In this document: positions 2,076 to 10,978 of the stretch, piece by piece | How positions within the stretch are numbered: position 1 is the stretch's first letter | Layout of the letters: the number at the start of each line of letters is the position of its first letter | DNA from: Escherichia phage vB_Eco_F31 | Length of the DNA: 64,000 nt | Strand: one strand, 5' to 3' | Sequence record: OP870147.1 | Program-made: the position numbers and the translations under genes | Notes under the pieces: generated by a model | The model's input: only the letters and a program-made list of their open reading frames with translations | Database searches by the model: none | Told to the model about the DNA's origin: nothing

Positions 2076-2534
2076 TTATAGGAGTGTAGTGAGCACCTTA
2101 TATAATGATTTGCCCATTACATATTCCCATTGAGAAGGTTTAATTAAAGCGAATGCATCAAATTCAGGAATCTGTCGTCCGTCTGGGAATGTATGATAGG
2201 AATTACAAACACTGTTTCTGAATTGCTCGTGCTCTACAGGGATGGTATATAGGAACAGATGAATATTCTTATTGTCTGAGTAATGATGTTCACCTAGGTC
2301 TTTCAGGAAGGCAGGGTCGTATTGTGTAAACCCAGTTTCTTCTTCGCATTCACGAATAGCGGCTTCAATAGGAGATTCGCCAGGTTCGACACGGCCTTTA
2401 GGAATATCCCACCTATGAGCTAATGCACCTTTAGAACGAGAACCAGTTACACGCCCCATGAATAATTCTTTATCTTCGGTAAGGAAAATAATACCGGCTG
2501 ATAGTTCTTTCACTTTATTTTTCTTACTCATCAT
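2076..2534 (-). CDS. nudE: Nudix hydrolase
   Basis: Nudix box GRVEPGESPIEAAIRECEEETGF present; position after e as in T4. Confidence 0.88.
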   Translation of the reverse strand: MMSKKNKVKELSAGIIFLTEDKELFMGRVTGSRSKGALAHRWDIPKGRVEPGESPIEAAIRECEEETGFTQYDPAFLKDLGEHHYSDNKNIHLFLYTIPVEHEQFRNSVCNSYHTFPDGRQIPEFDAFALIKPSQWEYVMGKSLYKVLTTLL

Positions 2535-2760
2535 CTCGGTCCCATGATTTGGCCATTAATTCGGACATAAATTCTTCAATGCGCGTTTCTTTAGATGGAC
2601 TTTCACTATTAGAGACCGCAAGTTTGTAATCTGCAATAGGACAGAACATATCAAGGTCCATATTAAGGTCGTCTTTGATTTTTTCTTCTGACACATCTTT
2701 ATCGTATGTGTACAGATAACTATCACATGATTCTGATTTAATGTAAATTGCTATACTCAT
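2524..2760 (-). CDS. hypothetical protein
   Basis: ORF track 2524..2775; ATG at 2760 forms ATGA overlap with upstream stop; no recognisable domain. Confidence 0.45.
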   Translation of the reverse strand: MSIAIYIKSESCDSYLYTYDKDVSEEKIKDDLNMDLDMFCPIADYKLAVSNSESPSKETRIEEFMSELMAKSWDRDDE

Positions 2761-3248
2761 CTCAAATTCCTGCATTCGGTAATAAAACGTTCAACTTCAT
2801 TATTCTTGGCCTTTATCTTGTCTTTACGTTCCTGTAAACTACTTTTAACAAGATTAATAATGATGCCTACAGTACCGCCGCCAATGATGCCGCCAACAAC
2901 ACTTATGATAATAGATGCTAATAAGATAGCAATAATATCAACAAAACCGAAAGAACTCACCTTAGTACTAAAAAACCATACCGACGGTACAAATATAATC
3001 CATCCTGTTATCCATTGGCACTTATTGAAAAACTTTTCAAGCTCAGCTTGAGTTGTTCGTATTACTTCATCGATAGGTTGATATCCATTAATGTATCTGT
3101 TCACGATAATACCTGCTGGCTGGTCGATTTTAAATTCTTGGCAAATATGTTTCACTAAGTAGGATGGACATCCTGTCCAATCTACTGAATAGTACGAAAT
3201 ACCTTCATTGCCGTCGTCAATATTAGACCAATATGTTTTGTTAATCAT
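2757..3248 (-). CDS. small membrane protein, FIxECR-tail family
   Basis: 163 aa, long hydrophobic segment, C-terminal ...ERFITECRNLR. Confidence 0.55.
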   Translation of the reverse strand: MINKTYWSNIDDGNEGISYYSVDWTGCPSYLVKHICQEFKIDQPAGIIVNRYINGYQPIDEVIRTTQAELEKFFNKCQWITGWIIFVPSVWFFSTKVSSFGFVDIIAILLASIIISVVGGIIGGGTVGIIINLVKSSLQERKDKIKAKNNEVERFITECRNLR

Positions 3249-3934
3249 TACCAGCCTTCCATAGGGAATTCCAGATAAACTTGGGCATTGACACGAATTT
3301 CATTGGTAATCTTTTTAACTCGGTCTGTATTACGAGATACACGTCCGAACCAACGCCATCCGTTACTAATTGCACGAGAACCAGTGTGCCATGTTTGCCA
3401 ATCAAACTGAAGAAGAGTACGATCTGGAGCTTCCCATTTCTCTAGTTCACCTTTTTCAATTTTTTCGAGGACTTCTTTGTGCCACTGGCGATAGATAAGT
3501 TCGCCATCAGGAATCTGACTGAACTCTGCAGTTCCTGTTGCAAAATGAGTAGGACACACGTCAGCGTTAACAAGACCAAGAATATGTTCAGAATGGTAAC
3601 GAGGGTTGTCATAGTCAGGTTGTCCTGCAGTAATAAAGTGTTGACCAACTGGAATATCAGGGCGAGGAACATCGTCATGGTGGTATCCAGGAATAGCAGG
3701 ATACCAACCAGGCATCAGCATATGGACTCGTGAATCAAATACAACATGTTGATTAGTCCAATCAATTGGGAGATTGGCAATAAAGCTACGAGTGATTGAG
3801 CCACCATTATCCCAAGCAAAACCCAAATCACAATTAAAGAACATTGGTTCATTTTTGATTCGGTCATTTTGTACGTTATGTGCAAAACTACCAACTGCAC
3901 GAGCTTGACTATTAAAAGTTTTAGAACTATTCAT
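3248..3934 (-). CDS. hypothetical protein
   Basis: 228 aa ORF, ATG with GAGGAAA SD; His/Asp-rich segment GYHHDD; function not assignable by eye. Confidence 0.55.
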   Translation of the reverse strand: MNSSKTFNSQARAVGSFAHNVQNDRIKNEPMFFNCDLGFAWDNGGSITRSFIANLPIDWTNQHVVFDSRVHMLMPGWYPAIPGYHHDDVPRPDIPVGQHFITAGQPDYDNPRYHSEHILGLVNADVCPTHFATGTAEFSQIPDGELIYRQWHKEVLEKIEKGELEKWEAPDRTLLQFDWQTWHTGSRAISNGWRWFGRVSRNTDRVKKITNEIRVNAQVYLEFPMEGW

Positions 3935-3935
3935 A

Positions 3936-4241
3936 TTATTTTCCTCGACATTCTTTAATGAAATTTTCTAGATTGGTAGATTCAATAGCTTTTTTACGAG
4001 CTTCTGCATGTTCTTCTTCAGACAATTTACATTTATAATTAACCCAGACATTATGGTCGAAACTAGTCGTGGCATATAATAACAATGCTCCAACGAATAG
4101 CAAAAACGGCGATAAGAATACAAAACCAGGAACACCATCCATATCGTAAGCCTTTTGTAATACTGCAACAGAAAGAGCTGCGTAAAAAGGTGATGCAAAT
4201 ATTGTTAAAAGACCAATTCGGTTGGTTTCGCCTAATTTCAT
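3936..4241 (-). CDS. small membrane protein, FIxECR-tail family
   Basis: 101 aa, two hydrophobic segments, C-terminal ...ENFIKECRGK; early promoter module upstream. Confidence 0.55.
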   Translation of the reverse strand: MKLGETNRIGLLTIFASPFYAALSVAVLQKAYDMDGVPGFVFLSPFLLFVGALLLYATTSFDHNVWVNYKCKLSEEEHAEARKKAIESTNLENFIKECRGK

Positions 4242-4299
4242 AATATTCTCCTCATGTTTTAATAGGACTACTATAATATAGCCCTATCAGTTTGTACAC

Positions 4300-4500
4300 T
4301 TATTTTGACATTTCTTCGATGTCACGACGATACCCATCACGAACTTCACGAAGAGCTTCAAGGCCACACATAGGCTCGATACCAGTAATGTGAACTTGAT
4401 TAATCTGATACTCTACATCTTCTAACTGAGCGAAAACATAACGACGTTCTGCTGCACAACCAGGTTTAGCTTTACCGAAACGTTTATTCAAAGTAGTCAT
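4300..4500 (-). CDS. hypothetical protein
   Basis: ORF track 4300..4518; ATG 4500 preferred because preceded by GGAG SD and downstream of the early promoter. Confidence 0.45.
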   Translation of the reverse strand: MTTLNKRFGKAKPGCAAERRYVFAQLEDVEYQINQVHITGIEPMCGLEALREVRDGYRRDIEEMSK

Positions 4501-4538
4501 TTTTATATCTCCATTCACTCATTTGTTTTGATAGGTCT

Positions 4539-4568
4539 ATAGTATCAACAACTACAGACCTTGTAAAC
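4539..4568 (-). promoter_or_regulatory. early promoter (GTTTAC-N18-TACTAT) with flanking inverted repeat AGGTCT/AGACCT
   Basis: T4 early-promoter pattern upstream of 4300..4500. Confidence 0.5.
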
Positions 4569-4580
4569 TGTTTTGTGAAA

Positions 4581-5537
4581 TTATTTGAAAGGTTTTACCA
4601 TATGAAAGTTTTGTTTGAAACGCTTGACGTAATCGTCGTGTCCTAAGCTTTGGTACATACTTACTACTTTGCTATAATTTTCCCAAGCGAACTCACGGAA
4701 CCATCCTGATGTGATTGATGTACAGACCTTTTCAAGGGCCATCATAAAACTATCACGTGGATGGATTTTAAAGTCGTTAGGAATCTGTGAACGTTCAAGA
4801 GCTAATACACAAGCTTCTTCATATACACCGGCTAATTTAACCATTTCTGGTAACGATTCGAACTTCTCGCGTGAGGTCATGACTTCAGAACCGTCTTTCA
4901 TATAAAACTTATAAGCAGGCTGGTCAGTTAGTGCAATGGCTTCATGGATAGTATCATGGTCATACGTATAGATGTCATCTTTAAAGAACGCACTTTTAGA
5001 AGTGTCAAGAACTGGGTGAGCATAATTCAAGGTTTCTTTCTGGCGTTTCAGCATAATTTCAGTAAGTTCATCGTTCAGTGTAACACCTTTACCACGAAGA
5101 TACTGAATATGGTTCATAGTCTTTAAAAAGAATGGATTATTTTTCTTGAAACGATGAGACATCTTAATTGCAAGACATATCTCAGGAGTTGCCCAGTAAA
5201 ACCCGTTCAAACGGTCTTTAGTCAAATTTTTCTTGGAGTATTTTAAAAGGTCATAAGAAGACGTGAAATCTTCAGGAGTGAGTTCACCGACTAGTTCGCG
5301 AACGTTAGTGATAGCCGGAACGATGTATGCTTCAAAATGAGTTTCGCGTCCATTATGGAAGCATTTGAAAACTTGGACATCAGGGTTATCTTGGTGAACA
5401 TATACACCCATCATTTGATTTTTGAATGCATTCCAAGAACCTTGGTCCGCAATAAAGTCCCAGTCACTATTTTTAATAGCGCTAGAATCAATAAGACCGT
5501 GATAGTGAAGTGCACGAGAACCAATAACTAACATCAT
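4581..5537 (-). CDS. hypothetical protein with possible nucleotidyltransferase-like N-terminus
   Basis: 318 aa; N-terminal IGSRALHYHG...SDWDF resembles a GS...DxD signature (weak, unverified). Confidence 0.5.
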   Translation of the reverse strand: MMLVIGSRALHYHGLIDSSAIKNSDWDFIADQGSWNAFKNQMMGVYVHQDNPDVQVFKCFHNGRETHFEAYIVPAITNVRELVGELTPEDFTSSYDLLKYSKKNLTKDRLNGFYWATPEICLAIKMSHRFKKNNPFFLKTMNHIQYLRGKGVTLNDELTEIMLKRQKETLNYAHPVLDTSKSAFFKDDIYTYDHDTIHEAIALTDQPAYKFYMKDGSEVMTSREKFESLPEMVKLAGVYEEACVLALERSQIPNDFKIHPRDSFMMALEKVCTSITSGWFREFAWENYSKVVSMYQSLGHDDYVKRFKQNFHMVKPFK

Positions 5538-5565
5538 AATATTTTCCTCGGATTAATTCATTAAC

Positions 5566-5805
5566 TTAAATTTCACGACATGCGATATTATATTCATCCC
5601 AGAGGTCATCATGTGAAGCCTCTACCAATGGAACGATTGTACCGTTTATGTCTTCATTATAAGGGCAAATTGTACAGTGCGCATCTTCGAATCGGATGCC
5701 TTTGTGTTCAGATTTTTTATAACGCATATCGAATATCTTTGCAAACTTTTCACGAGTAATGGTTTTACCAACCACTTTGGTTCCGATACTTTCGTAATAA
5801 ATCAT
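5566..5805 (-). CDS. hypothetical small protein with CxxC motif
   Basis: ORF track 5566..5817; ATG 5805 preceded by GGAG; contains HCTICPY. Confidence 0.45.
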   Translation of the reverse strand: MIYYESIGTKVVGKTITREKFAKIFDMRYKKSEHKGIRFEDAHCTICPYNEDINGTIVPLVEASHDDLWDEYNIACREI

Positions 5806-5822
5806 TGTGGACTCCATTTGTT

Positions 5823-5863
5823 TTGATAGGACTACTATAACATAGCCCTATCTTGTTGTAAAC
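5823..5863 (-). promoter_or_regulatory. early promoter module (GTTTAC + TA-rich -10) with repeated element GATAGGACTACTATAACATAGCCCTATC
   Basis: Near-identical to the modules at 4262-4288 and 12443-12470. Confidence 0.5.
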
Positions 5864-5867
5864 TGTT

Positions 5868-6065
5868 TTAGCAAGAATAACTAGATGATACCCAGCCTTG
5901 AACAGTGATATTATTGTGGGATAATGAGATCGCGTCCTGGAGATTCAGACCTGCGTTATCTTCAATCCATAATGTAACTTCTTCGCGTTCTTCTGTTGCA
6001 ATTTGGAACAGGTTTTCCAGAGCAGCTACTGCCGTACGTACAGCACAATCTAATTCACGAGACAT
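5868..6065 (-). CDS. small protein, GWVxSSxxC C-terminal family (paralog 3)
   Basis: 65 aa ending ...VQGWVSSSYSC. Confidence 0.5.
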   Translation of the reverse strand: MSRELDCAVRTAVAALENLFQIATEEREEVTLWIEDNAGLNLQDAISLSHNNITVQGWVSSSYSC

Positions 6066-6074
6066 ATTGTTTCC

Positions 6075-6347
6075 TTAGCAAGTGTGAGAAGATGCGACCC
6101 AACCACCGGTTTCGAGGCTCAGGTTGTAGTCGTATTGGTAAACGTCAGCCCATTCAGCATAGCCGTTTTTTGTACAACGTTCAAGATCGGCTTTAAGATG
6201 TCCGGGTGAATGATAGGTTCCACCCATACCATAAGCTGGGTACAAGTTGAATGTTGTGTTTTGTTTATCAGCAATTTCTTTGGCAGCCTCAATAGCTGCA
6301 TAGATTTTTGCTACAGCTTCAGCCAGTTCGGTTTGTTCTTTAGACAT
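6075..6347 (-). CDS. small protein, GWVxSSxxC C-terminal family (paralog 2)
   Basis: 90 aa ending ...GGWVASSHTC. Confidence 0.55.
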   Translation of the reverse strand: MSKEQTELAEAVAKIYAAIEAAKEIADKQNTTFNLYPAYGMGGTYHSPGHLKADLERCTKNGYAEWADVYQYDYNLSLETGGWVASSHTC

Positions 6348-6356
6348 AATGATTCC

Positions 6357-6662
6357 TTAGCACAACGCAGAAGACGAAACCCAAGCACCTTCAGTAATAA
6401 CGTATCCATTACCTTCACGCTTAACATCGCCGCCATTATTTTCAATTTCATCTTTCATCCACTGGGATACGATTTCACCCTTAGGATAATAAGTACGACC
6501 GCTACCATAATCACCTACAGAAAATGATACGGCATATTGGTCTGCGATCTTTGTTGCTTCTTCTTCGATACGTTCAGCTTGATTCAGAAGTTTATAAATT
6601 GCATCTGAAGCGGATTTGGCATCATTAAACTCTGGTACTTTAATTTCAATAATCTTACTCAT
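6357..6662 (-). CDS. small protein, GWVxSSxxC C-terminal family (paralog 1)
   Basis: 101 aa ending ...GAWVSSSALC. Confidence 0.55.
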   Translation of the reverse strand: MSKIIEIKVPEFNDAKSASDAIYKLLNQAERIEEEATKIADQYAVSFSVGDYGSGRTYYPKGEIVSQWMKDEIENNGGDVKREGNGYVITEGAWVSSSALC

Positions 6663-7018
6663 TTTCTACATTCCTTAATAAAGTTTTCGATTGTTTCATT
6701 TTCACGTTTAGCTAGGAGTTCATTATAACTAATCATTTGAGAAGCGTAAACCTTTTTATTTTTCTTGTTATGGTTTATAAAATCGTAGTAAAAATAGACT
6801 ACAGTACAAAAGGATGCGATAGATGCAAAGGCTTGGGTATACCGTAAGTCCTGCCATTGGTCTGTGAATCCACCAGTGTTACCTATAAATCCTAACACAA
6901 CTCCGTCAATAAGAAATCCAACTAATCCAAAGGCAAATCCCATGCCAATACTCATAATAAAAATTAGAATGTTCTCACCAAGAGAAGGCCATACGGTTAA
7001 GAGTTGAGGCTTTTGCAT
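6659..7018 (-). CDS. small membrane protein, FIxECR-tail family
   Basis: 119 aa, hydrophobic core, C-terminal ...ENFIKECRK; stop overlaps next start. Confidence 0.55.
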   Translation of the reverse strand: MQKPQLLTVWPSLGENILIFIMSIGMGFAFGLVGFLIDGVVLGFIGNTGGFTDQWQDLRYTQAFASIASFCTVVYFYYDFINHNKKNKKVYASQMISYNELLAKRENETIENFIKECRK

Positions 7019-7392
7019 CTTATTTCCTTAACGAATTCCATAGCTTCTTCATATTCATACTTTTTAACAGCTTCATCATACTGAGCTTGGGCTTTTGCGC
7101 ACTGAACTTTCCACTCACGAACTCGAGCTCTGTGATGACGGCCTTGGTGCCAATATCCTGCCCAATTAATAGGCATTAATAAAAACGGTACAATAAGTGG
7201 TGCGACGAACATTAATGAAAACGCTGCATCAGACGATATAACTTTATTGGAATCTAAAACAGCTCCTATAATCATAAAGATTAAAAATGCTAAAGCTAAA
7301 ATAGGACCAAATAGTACTTCGTTTGGGATTAATTTACGTTTGTATTCGTATGCCCAGGGCTTAATTGGCATGTACAGGGTTGGCTTTGACAT
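6997..7392 (-). CDS. membrane protein (hypothetical)
   Basis: ORF track 6997..7422; ATG 7392 (MSKPTLY...) chosen; hydrophobic segments; C-terminal ...EFVKEIRCK. Confidence 0.45.
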   Translation of the reverse strand: MSKPTLYMPIKPWAYEYKRKLIPNEVLFGPILALAFLIFMIIGAVLDSNKVISSDAAFSLMFVAPLIVPFLLMPINWAGYWHQGRHHRARVREWKVQCAKAQAQYDEAVKKYEYEEAMEFVKEIRCKSLNS

Positions 7393-7963
7393 ATTCTCTA
7401 CATTCCATAATAAATTGCTCAAGGATTAAATTGTTAGTGAAATTAGGACTAACAACCATAGTTTCATAAAGCGCATCAATAGCACTTAAAGCATCAACTC
7501 TCTTAAGCAAAGGCTTGCCTTCATACATAGTTTCAGAATCGACGATTAAAGTGAAGTAGTATTTTTTATTATTGACCAGAACTTCTGTATCAATATAAAA
7601 CATGTTAGACCTCAGAAGCTTATCTCTAAAACCATAATAATCTTCAGAGCGTTCGCTGATATATTCCCATTCGGTGTTTAAACAACAAACAGACCACGTA
7701 GGAGCAACGAAATCAGTGAATCTAATATCATGGTCTGCAACTAGTTTAGCAATAGCTCCGATATCATGAATCATAATACCTGGGGCTAATAAAGATTTTC
7801 TGCTATGGCTAGCCGTTTTCTCGGTGGTCTCATAAGAAGACGACCAGTACCATTTACGTCCAGTTGCAACATATCGTAATGAATCAACTAAAGACGTAGG
7901 TGGATTTACCTTATCTCGGAACTCTTCGAACATTGAGTCAATATCATTATTTTGGTTTCGCAT
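7361..7963 (-). CDS. hypothetical protein (C-terminal EQFIMECRE motif)
   Basis: ORF track 7361..7984; ATG 7963 preceded by AAGGAG. Confidence 0.5.
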   Translation of the reverse strand: MRNQNNDIDSMFEEFRDKVNPPTSLVDSLRYVATGRKWYWSSSYETTEKTASHSRKSLLAPGIMIHDIGAIAKLVADHDIRFTDFVAPTWSVCCLNTEWEYISERSEDYYGFRDKLLRSNMFYIDTEVLVNNKKYYFTLIVDSETMYEGKPLLKRVDALSAIDALYETMVVSPNFTNNLILEQFIMECREYVKANPVHAN

Positions 7964-7980
7964 GTTAACTCCTTTATTAT

Positions 7981-8004
7981 CCAAAAGGAGGACCGGAGTC
8001 CTCC
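7981..8004 (-). terminator. hairpin GGAGGAC-CGGA-GTCCTCC + U-run (minus strand) after 8013..8606
   Basis: 7-bp GC-rich stem followed by TTTTGG on the transcribed strand. Confidence 0.45.
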
Positions 8005-8012
8005 GTATTATT

Positions 8013-8606
8013 TTATTTCAAAGAGTTAATATATTCTTGTACATCAGCAGAAGTGGTTTCGACACCAGCTGGAGTGCCATTGAACGTTTCAACACGAGTT
8101 AGAGTGTCTTCGATATCAACCTTAGTCAGTGCAGCGATTTCAATTACATCATCGGCCGTAGAGATACCAAGGGCATTAGCTGCTCGAGTTTCACGAATGT
8201 ATTCGAGTTTGATTGCCAGATTCTGCCGAGCATCATCAAGTTCAACCACCTTACGAGCAATTTCAATTCGCATAGCGGCATACCCGTCAGCTTTTGTATT
8301 AAGTTGTTCGGCAGTTCGACGATACAGAAGACCAAGCTTAGCATGCATAGTAACATCTTGTCCTTCGGCCAGGAGCTTACGAATTTCACGTTCCTTAGAA
8401 GCGGCTTGCTTGTTCTTTTCATTAACAAGTTCGCGAATACGTTTTTCTTCATTAATAGATTTAACAGAAGCCGTTTTTAGTTCTTTGATTTGGGTAATCA
8501 ACTTATCTGCAGCTGCGTTATACTGTTCTTCGACAGTCAGATTTTTAGCCATAGCAGTACCCAGTTTAGTGCGGATGAATTCAACAAGTTTCTTCAGTGT
8601 GTTCAT
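8013..8606 (-). CDS. coiled-coil protein (hypothetical; possibly PspA/IM30-like, unverified)
   Basis: about 198 aa, highly charged K/E/A/R-rich heptad-like sequence; ATG 8606. Confidence 0.45.
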
Positions 8607-9612: not shown

Positions 9613-10077
9613 TTATTTAATTTGTTTAGCAGACCAGATACGGTCTTTAATAAGTTTTTGGATATCTTCAACATACTCAAGGCTATGAGCGTGAGGATTA
9701 TCTTTGAAGCTATGTGCTCGTGCCAGTTTCTGTCCTTCTGTTTTGATTACTAAAAGCTCTTTAAGAATTGCTTCATACTTAGAAATAATTCCTTTGGCGA
9801 TATTTTTTTCTTGAGCTGCTTTAGGGTCCGCTTTTGGCGCAGGTGCTTTACCTGTAGCTTTCTGGAACAATTCACCTGATGCAGCTAGGCTTTTAAAAAC
9901 TCGGCTAACAGTATTAGCATTAGTAAAACCTTCGGCTTTAAAATCTCTAATAAAACGGAAACGTTCTTCATCAGAGGCGTCTTTGTAAGAATATTTACCT
10001 GCTTGAATTGCTGCAATCGCAGCGGCTTTTACATCTGAACTAGATTGTTCAGTCAAAAATTCAGCGTATGATTTCAT
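9613..10077 (-). CDS. internal protein-like (CTS-bearing, MKSYAEFLTE...)
   Basis: 154 aa; N-terminus matches MKxYxEFxxE capsid-targeting pattern; Lys/Ala-rich. Confidence 0.55.
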   Translation of the reverse strand: MKSYAEFLTEQSSSDVKAAAIAAIQAGKYSYKDASDEERFRFIRDFKAEGFTNANTVSRVFKSLAASGELFQKATGKAPAPKADPKAAQEKNIAKGIISKYEAILKELLVIKTEGQKLARAHSFKDNPHAHSLEYVEDIQKLIKDRIWSAKQIK

Positions 10078-10823: not shown

Positions 10824-10900
<77 letters not shown>

Positions 10901-10903
10901 GAT

Positions 10904-10978
10904 TGGTGACCCTGGCTGGTTTCGATCCAGCTACCTATCAGTTATGAGCTGACAGCTCTCCCATTGAGCTACAGGGCC
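10904..10978 (-). tRNA. tRNA with CAU anticodon (Ile by lysidine modification, or Met), CCA encoded
   Basis: Manual cloverleaf: acceptor GGCCCTG/CAGGGTC, D-arm GCTC...GAGC, anticodon loop CTCATAA, T-arm GCTGG-ATCGAAA-CCAGC. Confidence 0.75.

Follow-up and report, generated by a model that had tools for sequence, protein, structure and literature searches.

A short C-terminal motif selected at the amino-acid level is shared by proteins of the e.2 to e.6 early-gene cluster in T4-type phages

Bacteriophage T4 is among the best-studied viruses, yet its genes e.2 to e.6 still have no assigned function. For e.2 to e.5 (PHROGs 2203, 2330, 2604 and 2607), which lie between e.6 and nudE, the annotations read 'hypothetical' or 'predicted membrane' and record neither a function nor a shared motif. 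Here we examine their orthologues, which keep the same order, in a stretch of 64,000 nucleotides (record OP870147.1; hereafter the window) from Escherichia phage vB_Eco_F31, a T4-type myovirus of the RB69 group (Mosigvirus). Proteins encoded between e.6 and nudE share a C-terminal tail, F-[IV]-x-x-C-[RK], which is found far more often than expected by chance, is independent of ribosome-binding sites (RBSs), is specific to this cluster and is tied to e.6 by synteny. Compared with T4, the window holds one extra bearer of the tail, a protein of 101 amino acids (aa), whereas T4 e.2 is broken and retains the tail as a relic (...NNFITECRKLK). The shared tail appears to be undescribed: the searchable literature, which did not extend to the T4 genome review, held no account of it, nor of e.6 as a PspA-like protein.

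Two kinds of described system are among the closest. The ESCRT-III motif MIM1, (D/E)xxLxxRLxxL(K/R), binds MIT domains, and the XB tail of SspB binds ClpX. As in these cases, the window tail would be a short amphipathic helix with a basic cap, at or near the C-terminus of different proteins of one pathway; it differs in its pattern, and the likeness is one of analogy, not homology. In the Psp and Lia envelope modules, members of the PspA/Vipp1/ESCRT-III superfamily are accompanied by small membrane anchors (PspA by PspB and PspC, LiaH by LiaI). Similarly, e.6, with its predicted long helical hairpin, adjoins several small inner-membrane proteins with predicted cytoplasmic C-terminal helices. 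The e.4 family aligned with PspB at an hhalign probability of 63% over 39 columns, spanning the transmembrane (TM) segment and the region that follows; every other comparison of the small membrane bearers with PspB or PspC scored below 3%. T4 Imm and Sp are likewise small early proteins linked to the envelope, but they lack the tail, and half of the tail bearers are soluble. Comparison of the bearers with Imm and Sp gave nothing better than E=1.4 by BLASTP and at best 22% by hhalign, over TM segments only. Homology of the small membrane proteins to PspB, PspC, Imm, Sp or rI was rejected for want of credible similarity. The sequence-only reading of the window, from which this work started, had named superinfection exclusion as a candidate function; we found no evidence for this, in the comparisons with Imm and Sp or otherwise, and the Mosigvirus p000v has lost e.3.

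Gene order was assigned by comparison with T4 and PHROG. Positions 2500-8100 of the window are 96-98.6% identical to vB_EcoM_MM02, mobillu, APCEc01 and other phages, and the limits of the tail-bearing genes match those of annotated relatives such as mobillu. e.2, e.3, e.4 and e.5 gave full-length PHROG matches (E-values 3e-55 to 2e-95), and their tblastn identity to T4 was 35-54%. The order e.6-e.5-e.4-e.3 ... e.2-nudE is kept relative to T4, and the genes belong to the T4 orthologous groups; all genes lying between e.2 and e.3 in the window are missing from T4. No bearer matched Pfam or NCBIfam.

The sequence-only reading had picked out five C-termini with a tail of the E-x-F-I-x-E-C-R type. 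All five read as it described, at the right coordinates and on the minus strand (Table 1). Four proteins (e.2, the 101-aa protein, e.3 and e.5) end in strict F-I-x-E-C-R; the e.4 copy is degenerate, with Ile in place of Cys at +4 and a Cys at +6. Hydrophobic segments were located by Kyte-Doolittle analysis with a 19-residue window, and the membrane-like segments noticed earlier in e.2, the 101-aa protein and e.3 scored 1.9-2.8, with e.4 behaving likewise. e.2 consists of an N-terminal domain of ~80 aa, a hydrophobic TM region (about 80-135), a basic linker and the tail. The 101-aa protein, which has no T4 counterpart, has TM segments at 9-27 and 37-55 and a 46-aa C-terminal segment. In e.3 a TM segment (17-35) and a weaker hydrophobic stretch (~62-80) are followed by NHNKKNKK, a helical linker and the tail, and in e.4 TM segments at 26-44 and 57-75 precede a basic stretch and the degenerate tail. 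e.5 showed no TM-like segment, in agreement with its earlier description as soluble; its motif lies in a predicted terminal helix (residues 179-194), and the 11 residues beyond it are encoded across the start of e.4.

To gauge chance occurrence we scanned the 87 ORF-genes (genes called greedily as open reading frames, ORFs) on both strands of the window. The relaxed pattern [FLIVMWY][IVLM]..C[RK] was present only in e.2, the 101-aa protein, e.3 and e.5, and always at the C-terminus. Four proteins carry F[IV]..CR in their last 20 residues, against a mean of 0.007 expected from 20,000 shuffles; shuffling the C-terminal 30 residues alone gave an expectation of 0.004. The remaining 50 kb of the window held no further C-terminal match. 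The comparison set comprised 80 IMG/VR loci anchored on the neighbouring gene for a 228-aa protein, together with annotated regions of VR7, Q7622, IME341 and p000v; genes were called as greedy longest ORFs, each from its first ATG. These 84 related loci yielded 2,290 ORF-genes on the plus strand, in which F[IVLM]..C[RK] matched 89 times: 67 matches lay in the last 10 residues, 15 at 10-19 and 5 at 20-29, so that 87 of 89 fell inside the last 30 residues and 2 elsewhere. The sequences counted are mutually related, and the counts do not represent independent events.

In every enterobacterial T4-like locus sampled, between two and five proteins carry the strict motif, a number that rises if variants are counted; Aeromonas and Cronobacter phages have one or two only. 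Within T4 (1-76 kb and 119-169 kb) the strict C-terminal motif was found in e.3 (...KEFVIDCRKIK), in e.5 (...EKFVKECREYV...) and in the relic of the e.2 C-terminus, and T4 e.4 reads ...KFVKESRCKSQS. In the window and the sampled T4 regions the motif is thus confined to the early-gene cluster from e.6 to nudE. The distant IMG/VR loci L031-L086, in which the 228-aa gene sits in unrelated phage contexts, have neither the cluster nor the motif. A word-indexed search recovered close relatives only (three for e.3, four for e.5), and tblastn against the phage collection and the IMG/VR loci was used instead. An exhaustive e.5 profile search returned only six proteins, of which the distant member P0050 still ends ...EEFVKYCRGKN. 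T4 RIII (130785-131033), a cytoplasmic lysis-inhibition protein, ends ...AVRHFVVTLK and fits only the loosest form, Φ-x-x-F-V-x-x-L-K, a single match that does not exceed chance.

The link to e.6 is one of position. e.6 is present in 1,109 phage records, and in 35 of the 37 IMG/VR loci with an e.6 homologue the motif is present in the first downstream ORF of 100 aa or more, which encodes a soluble e.5-like protein; in the other two this ORF is truncated or miscalled. The soluble protein that follows e.6 also has the motif in Aeromonas SW69-9, Cronobacter leB and Klebsiella Kp122, where it ends ...LFVDYCRRTASKK, ...KFIHSCKKNV... or ...EFIKYCRKRVQK. e.6 itself has a related tail in the same register (Table 1): its homologues end [ST]-A-D-[VI]-x-[ED]-Y-[IL]-x-S-L-K, where Phe, Cys and Arg give way to Tyr, Leu and Lys, and the looser pattern Φ-x-x-Y-[IL]-x-S-L-K fits 22 of 25. 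An AlphaFold2 (AF2) model of e.6 from 25 sequences, with a predicted local distance difference test score (pLDDT) of 75, contains a helix at the N-terminus, a long helical hairpin and, at the C-terminus, short helices. In a Foldseek search of the PDB with this model each of the top ten matches was to Vipp1, to PspA or to CdvB2, an ESCRT-III protein of archaea, with a best E of 5e-4 and probabilities of 0.99-1.00. An e.6 profile compared with PDB sequences aligned weakly but colinearly with Vipp1 (E 1.1-2.3); e.6 had no Pfam match, did not fall within the PspA_IM30 profile and reached 0.5% in hhalign against E. coli PspA. We treat a PspA/Vipp1/ESCRT-III-like fold of e.6 as a lead and not as a result.

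The consensus extends to Φ-x-x-F-[IV]-x-x-C-[RK], with Leu, Phe, Ile or Val at position -3 in most tails and 1 to about 28 further residues after the motif. Hydrophobic residues at i, i+3, i+4 and i+7 would form one face of an amphipathic helix with a basic cap, and we infer that the tail is an amphipathic alpha-helix. In all five window tails the hydrophobic moment is greater at 100 than at 160 degrees, and an AF2 model of e.5, although poor (pLDDT 59), places the motif in the terminal helix. In the membrane bearers the tail comes after the last TM segment and a Lys/Arg-rich stretch, and the short loops between TM segments are neutral or carry acidic residues; under the positive-inside rule this suggests that these tails are cytoplasmic.

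Analysis of codon use indicated selection on the protein. At the fixed positions every synonymous codon is used: Phe is TTT 57 and TTC 19 times, Cys is TGC and TGT 38 times each, and Arg uses all six codons (CGT 25, AGA 21, CGC 8, AGG 7, CGA 7 and CGG 1). Within orthologue families, pairwise codon differences were 72 synonymous to 0 non-synonymous for Phe, 132 to 15 for Cys, 130 to 18 for Arg and 64 to 37 for Ile/Val, compared with a synonymous fraction of just 0.04-0.37 over the twelve codons in front of the motif and its two middle codons. The 101-aa and e.3 copies differ by four nucleotides in their shared E-N-F-I-K-E-C-R codons, all synonymous. In principle the motif could instead arise at the nucleotide level, as one reading frame of the signals that start translation of the next gene (AU-rich enhancer, AAGGA and spacer). 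The Shine-Dalgarno (SD) overlap pointed out in the sequence-only reading does exist in e.2, the 101-aa gene, e.3 and e.4 (Table 1), K-E recurs as AAG GAA, and 62 of 99 unique tails overlap an SD, 31 in the x-x codons and 31 in or just after the C-R codons. However, 37 of the 99 are free of overlap (26 with the SD wholly downstream and 11 without an adjacent start), as the earlier remark that the motif persists where other codons supply the SD had anticipated. The middle x-x positions, which hold the SD most often, are moreover the variable ones, and conservation is not restricted to the nucleotide level in RBS contexts. Together with the synonymous pattern, these observations effectively exclude an RBS artefact, and uphold the earlier claim that the tail is real: it is a short linear protein motif under purifying selection at the amino-acid level. 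Synonymous-codon analysis can in this way separate a motif that overlaps an SD from an RBS artefact. Across the 36 nt upstream of the motif the five window tails share 12-15 of 36 positions, the random level, against 10-17 of 18 in the motif itself; a recently spread cassette is therefore unlikely, and spread of a longer tail-plus-RBS cassette by recombination was rejected.

Related loci contain about 19-20 families of tail bearers without BLAST links between them, both 2-TM and soluble. They comprise e.5 and its soluble relatives (154-243 aa in these loci, 154-316 aa in all), a smaller soluble class of 92-116 aa, e.2-type proteins, in which a TM region follows an N-terminal domain, several 2-TM types of the e.3/e.4 kind and the 101-aa type. 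As far as sequence comparison can tell, at least four or five groups of proteins with unrelated bodies thus bear the tail. Retention of the tail inside families is nearly complete (20 of 21 members for e.2, the exception being the broken T4 gene). One explanation is that all bearers descend by tandem duplication within the hyperplastic region from one old family. The tail would then be all that can still be recognised of the ancestor, retained because the structure of each protein needs it and without a shared partner. The bearer genes are adjacent, the 101-aa protein weakly matches the e.2 PHROG across TM and tail (E=0.0019), and some families remain related after the tail is trimmed: e.4 with fam134 (hhalign 79%), the e.5-like families 26/29/60 (about 50%, 95% at full length) and families 23/38 (47%). 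Relationship beyond the tail holds among the e.5-like families, among the 2-TM families of the e.3/e.4 type and between two families of small soluble proteins. For many other pairs hhalign gave 60-91% over only 11-20 tail columns, and trimming reduced most pairs to below 8%; BLASTP alignments among the five window proteins were limited to the last 9-27 residues. Between the larger soluble bearers (~200-316 aa), the smaller soluble ones (~95-115 aa) and the TM proteins, the tail columns are the only detectable similarity, and in e.5-like proteins the tail is better conserved than any core position, which would be unusual for a remnant. We consider common descent unlikely. Accordingly, of the paralogous tail proposed earlier the tail stands and the single paralogous family does not, as similarity vanishes without the tail. 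The idea of a family of small membrane proteins fails in addition because e.5 and at least four other bearer families, with a maximum 19-residue hydropathy below 1.6, are soluble; the most constant bearer across T4-like phages is in fact the soluble e.5-like protein.

The cysteine invites a chemical explanation, in which a reactive Cys beside a basic residue serves to coordinate a metal or Fe-S centre between molecules, redox or mixed-disulfide control, or covalent modification, for example ADP-ribosylation by phage enzymes. In 15 e.5-like proteins below 70% identity, drawn from Tevenvirinae, Biquartavirus, Pseudotevenvirus and one metagenomic representative, just three alignment columns never vary, those of an Asn and of the motif Phe and Cys; the codon differences at Cys within families are mostly synonymous, and several bearers, usually 3-5, occur per genome. 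On the other hand, Aeromonas and Cronobacter phages manage with their one or two, each tail has a single Cys without a CxxC or His partner, and the e.3/e.4-type 2-TM families sometimes have Ile, Val, Ala, Leu or Met at the Cys position but retain F, I/V and R/K (FVKEIR in e.4; ELFIKNVRRK; EQFIESARKK), so that we regard this role as quite unlikely. The amphipathic pattern with its basic cap, the place of the motif at or near the C-terminus and the membrane-related context would also suit an in-plane helix, as in the membrane-targeting sequences of MinD and FtsA, that inserts into the cytoplasmic leaflet, brings e.5-like proteins to the membrane and stabilises the small TM proteins. Such a role is improbable, given a hydrophobic face of just four residues in acidic surroundings (E-x-F-I-K-E-C-R), a strict invariance of Phe and Cys that lipid binding would not need, and bearers that already span the membrane and need no targeting helix. 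Finally, the tail could be a C-terminal degron, a site for the T4 prohead protease or a packaging signal like that of internal proteins. The T4 protease gp21 cuts after [L/I]-x-E, and the capsid-targeting sequence is MKTYxEFIxE. The window copies do contain I-x-E (F-I-K-E|C-R), and the N-terminal capsid-targeting sequences of four internal-protein-like genes in the same window read xEF[IL]xE, a similar string. This leader, MKTYxEF[IL]xE in T4 and cleaved by gp21, is however N-terminal, in another register and without Cys-Arg, whereas the tail motif is C-terminal and has Glu at +3 in just 31 of 76 unique tails (otherwise Y, Q, S, M, L, G, H, D or N), so the tails do not qualify as gp21 sites or capsid-targeting sequences. 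With a motif at 1 to ~28 residues from the end there is no fixed terminal degron, and membrane proteins are improbable capsid cargo; we consider these roles very improbable.

With moderate confidence, about evenly held, we therefore propose that the tail is a common docking or assembly helix on a changing set of proteins. Through it, the proteins of the cluster would bind one another or a single common partner on the inner side of the membrane, and the shared tag predicts that they act together at the inner membrane. The leading candidate partner would be e.6, the universally co-occurring neighbour; otherwise the tails themselves or a host protein may serve. The 228-aa protein was rejected as a partner, since T4 lacks its gene and nevertheless keeps the motif. 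Several points weigh against a docking helix. The binding partners named are candidates, the topology rests on Kyte-Doolittle analysis and the positive-inside rule in place of a dedicated predictor, and the e.5 model is of the poor quality given above. The Cys is invariant in e.5-like and e.2-like proteins, for which a metal, redox or modification role fits at least as well. The families are phylogenetically non-independent, and the pattern was partly defined and refined after the data had been seen. T4, moreover, tolerates a disrupted e.2 and p000v the loss of e.3, indicating that individual bearers are dispensable. Whatever its role, a shared, selected tail offers an experimental handle on these genes that can be used as bait, deleted or mutated.

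A more specific form of the docking proposal is tentative, and we would give it a low probability. The tails may mimic the C-terminal helix of e.6 (D-V-x-E-Y-I-x-S-L-K) and dock on an e.6 polymer, with e.6 as a phage membrane remodeller of the PspA/Vipp1/ESCRT-III kind, the e.5-type protein as a constant regulator and e.2, e.3, e.4 and the 101-aa protein as interchangeable anchors. Fast-evolving small membrane proteins would then tether or steer e.6 at the inner membrane. If so, the cluster would be a module of the T4 family with which an infecting phage keeps the host membrane intact or reshapes it, and the near-universal synteny would tie the bearers to what is perhaps a phage homologue of the PspA/ESCRT-III remodellers.

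Two bearers have decayed in relatives. T4 e.2 (67472-67960; annotated as 102 aa) contains two in-frame stops (...IQWTE-stop-AIGFF-stop-LYLL...), beyond which the frame runs on to the relic tail, overlapping the nudE start. As VR7 e.2 aligns across these stops (E 4e-22), T4 e.2 is a decayed or split gene with surviving tail codons. In p000v (3991-4090) e.3 is reduced to its last 30 codons (...ENFIKECRK), directly before the next gene.

Table 1 Positions of tail bearers, their motif codons and surrounding features in the window
Feature	Position	Strand	Remarks
e.2 orthologue, 163 aa	2757-3248	minus	PHROG 2203 'membrane protein'; ends ...VERFITECRNLR
e.2 motif codons	2769-2795	minus	V-E-R-F-I-T-E-C-R; downstream SD AGGA in C-R-N codons
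101-aa protein	3936-4241	minus	PHROG 9798; ends ...LENFIKECRGK
101-aa motif codons	3945-3971	minus	L-E-N-F-I-K-E-C-R; SD GAGGA in R-G-K codons
e.3 orthologue, 119 aa	6659-7018	minus	PHROG 2330; ends ...IENFIKECRK
e.3 motif codons	6665-6691	minus	I-E-N-F-I-K-E-C-R; SD AAGGA is the K-E codon pair
e.4 orthologue, 131 aa	6997-7392	minus	PHROG 2604; degenerate tail ...AMEFVKEIRCKSLNS
e.4 degenerate motif codons	7018-7044	minus	A-M-E-F-V-K-E-I-R; AAGGA in K-E codons
e.5 orthologue, 200 aa	7361-7963	minus	PHROG 2607; reads ...LEQFIMECREYVKANPVHAN
e.5 motif codons	7397-7423	minus	L-E-Q-F-I-M-E-C-R
e.6	8013-8606	minus	upstream neighbour of e.5
e.6 C-terminal codons	8016-8042	minus	V-Q-E-Y-I-N-S-L-K; related tail, same register
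denV	803-1228	minus	followed by an internal-protein gene
e lysozyme	1553-2053	minus	
nudE	2076-2534	minus	followed by a 78-aa ORF
228-aa protein gene	3248-3934	minus	between e.2 and the 101-aa gene
72-aa ORF, 318-aa DUF7275/DUF7277 protein, 83-aa ORF		minus	in this order between the 101-aa gene and the three small paralogues
Three small paralogues	5868-6662	minus	e.3 adjoins
Paralogue, 65 aa	5868-6065	minus	
Paralogue, 90 aa	6075-6347	minus	
Paralogue, 101 aa	6357-6662	minus	PHROG 899
GC-rich hairpin and T-run	7987-8004	minus	between e.6 and e.5; terminator-like or RNA-stabilising
PeSL-like cassettes	~5812-5867, 4515-4577, 4240-4300	minus	three similar copies
ORFs with internal-protein leader	157-471, 536-796, 1275-1571, 9613-10077	minus	
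tRNA-Arg(TCT) and tRNA-Met(CAT)	10824-10978	minus	downstream of the cluster

Every gene in the first 15 kb of the window lies on the minus strand. PeSL promoter/stem-loop cassettes have been reported from the hyperplastic regions of T4-type phages (PMC2839356, PMC4122927), and three promoter cassettes of the window look like them. Each has an early-promoter-like site (TTTACA/TGTACA, 17 nt, TATAGT/TACTAT), and the stem-loop ATAGGGCTAT...ATAGTAGTCCTAT encloses the -10 element and is followed by CAAAACAA and an SD. The cluster is thus a set of early genes with PeSL-type cassettes, in keeping with the hyperplastic region envisaged in the sequence-only reading. The hairpin between e.6 and e.5 has a perfect 7-bp stem (GGAGGAC-TCCG-GTCCTCC) followed by TTTT, and T4 has a GGGGC-TTCG-GCCCC hairpin at the same spot.

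The 228-aa protein (PHROG 1843, no Pfam match) ends ...YLEFPMEGW. It has homologues of 49-95% identity in 80 viral contigs (L007-L086) of very different contexts, far beyond T4-like phages, and its gene appears to be a widely mobile phage gene absent from T4.

The three tandem paralogues next to e.3 end W-V-[SA]-S-S-x-x-C, in which nothing follows the Cys, and represent a second, distinct C-terminal-Cys tail family in the cluster; the 101-aa copy was the only one of the three scanned against PHROG. In VR7, IME341 and Q7622 there are four or five such genes (...WVSSSAMC, ...WYNSSMSC, ...IWYPSSC). Most of these genes are followed by TAAGGAAxxxxxATG, in which the TAA stop is fused to the next SD.

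Four ORFs (Table 1) begin MK[TSM]Y.EF[IL].E, the leader that directs T4 internal proteins to the capsid. In the window the e cluster is therefore flanked by at least four genes of the internal-protein kind. Downstream of the cluster lie the two tRNA genes, tRNA-Arg(TCT) and tRNA-Met(CAT); the T4 set is much larger (eight).

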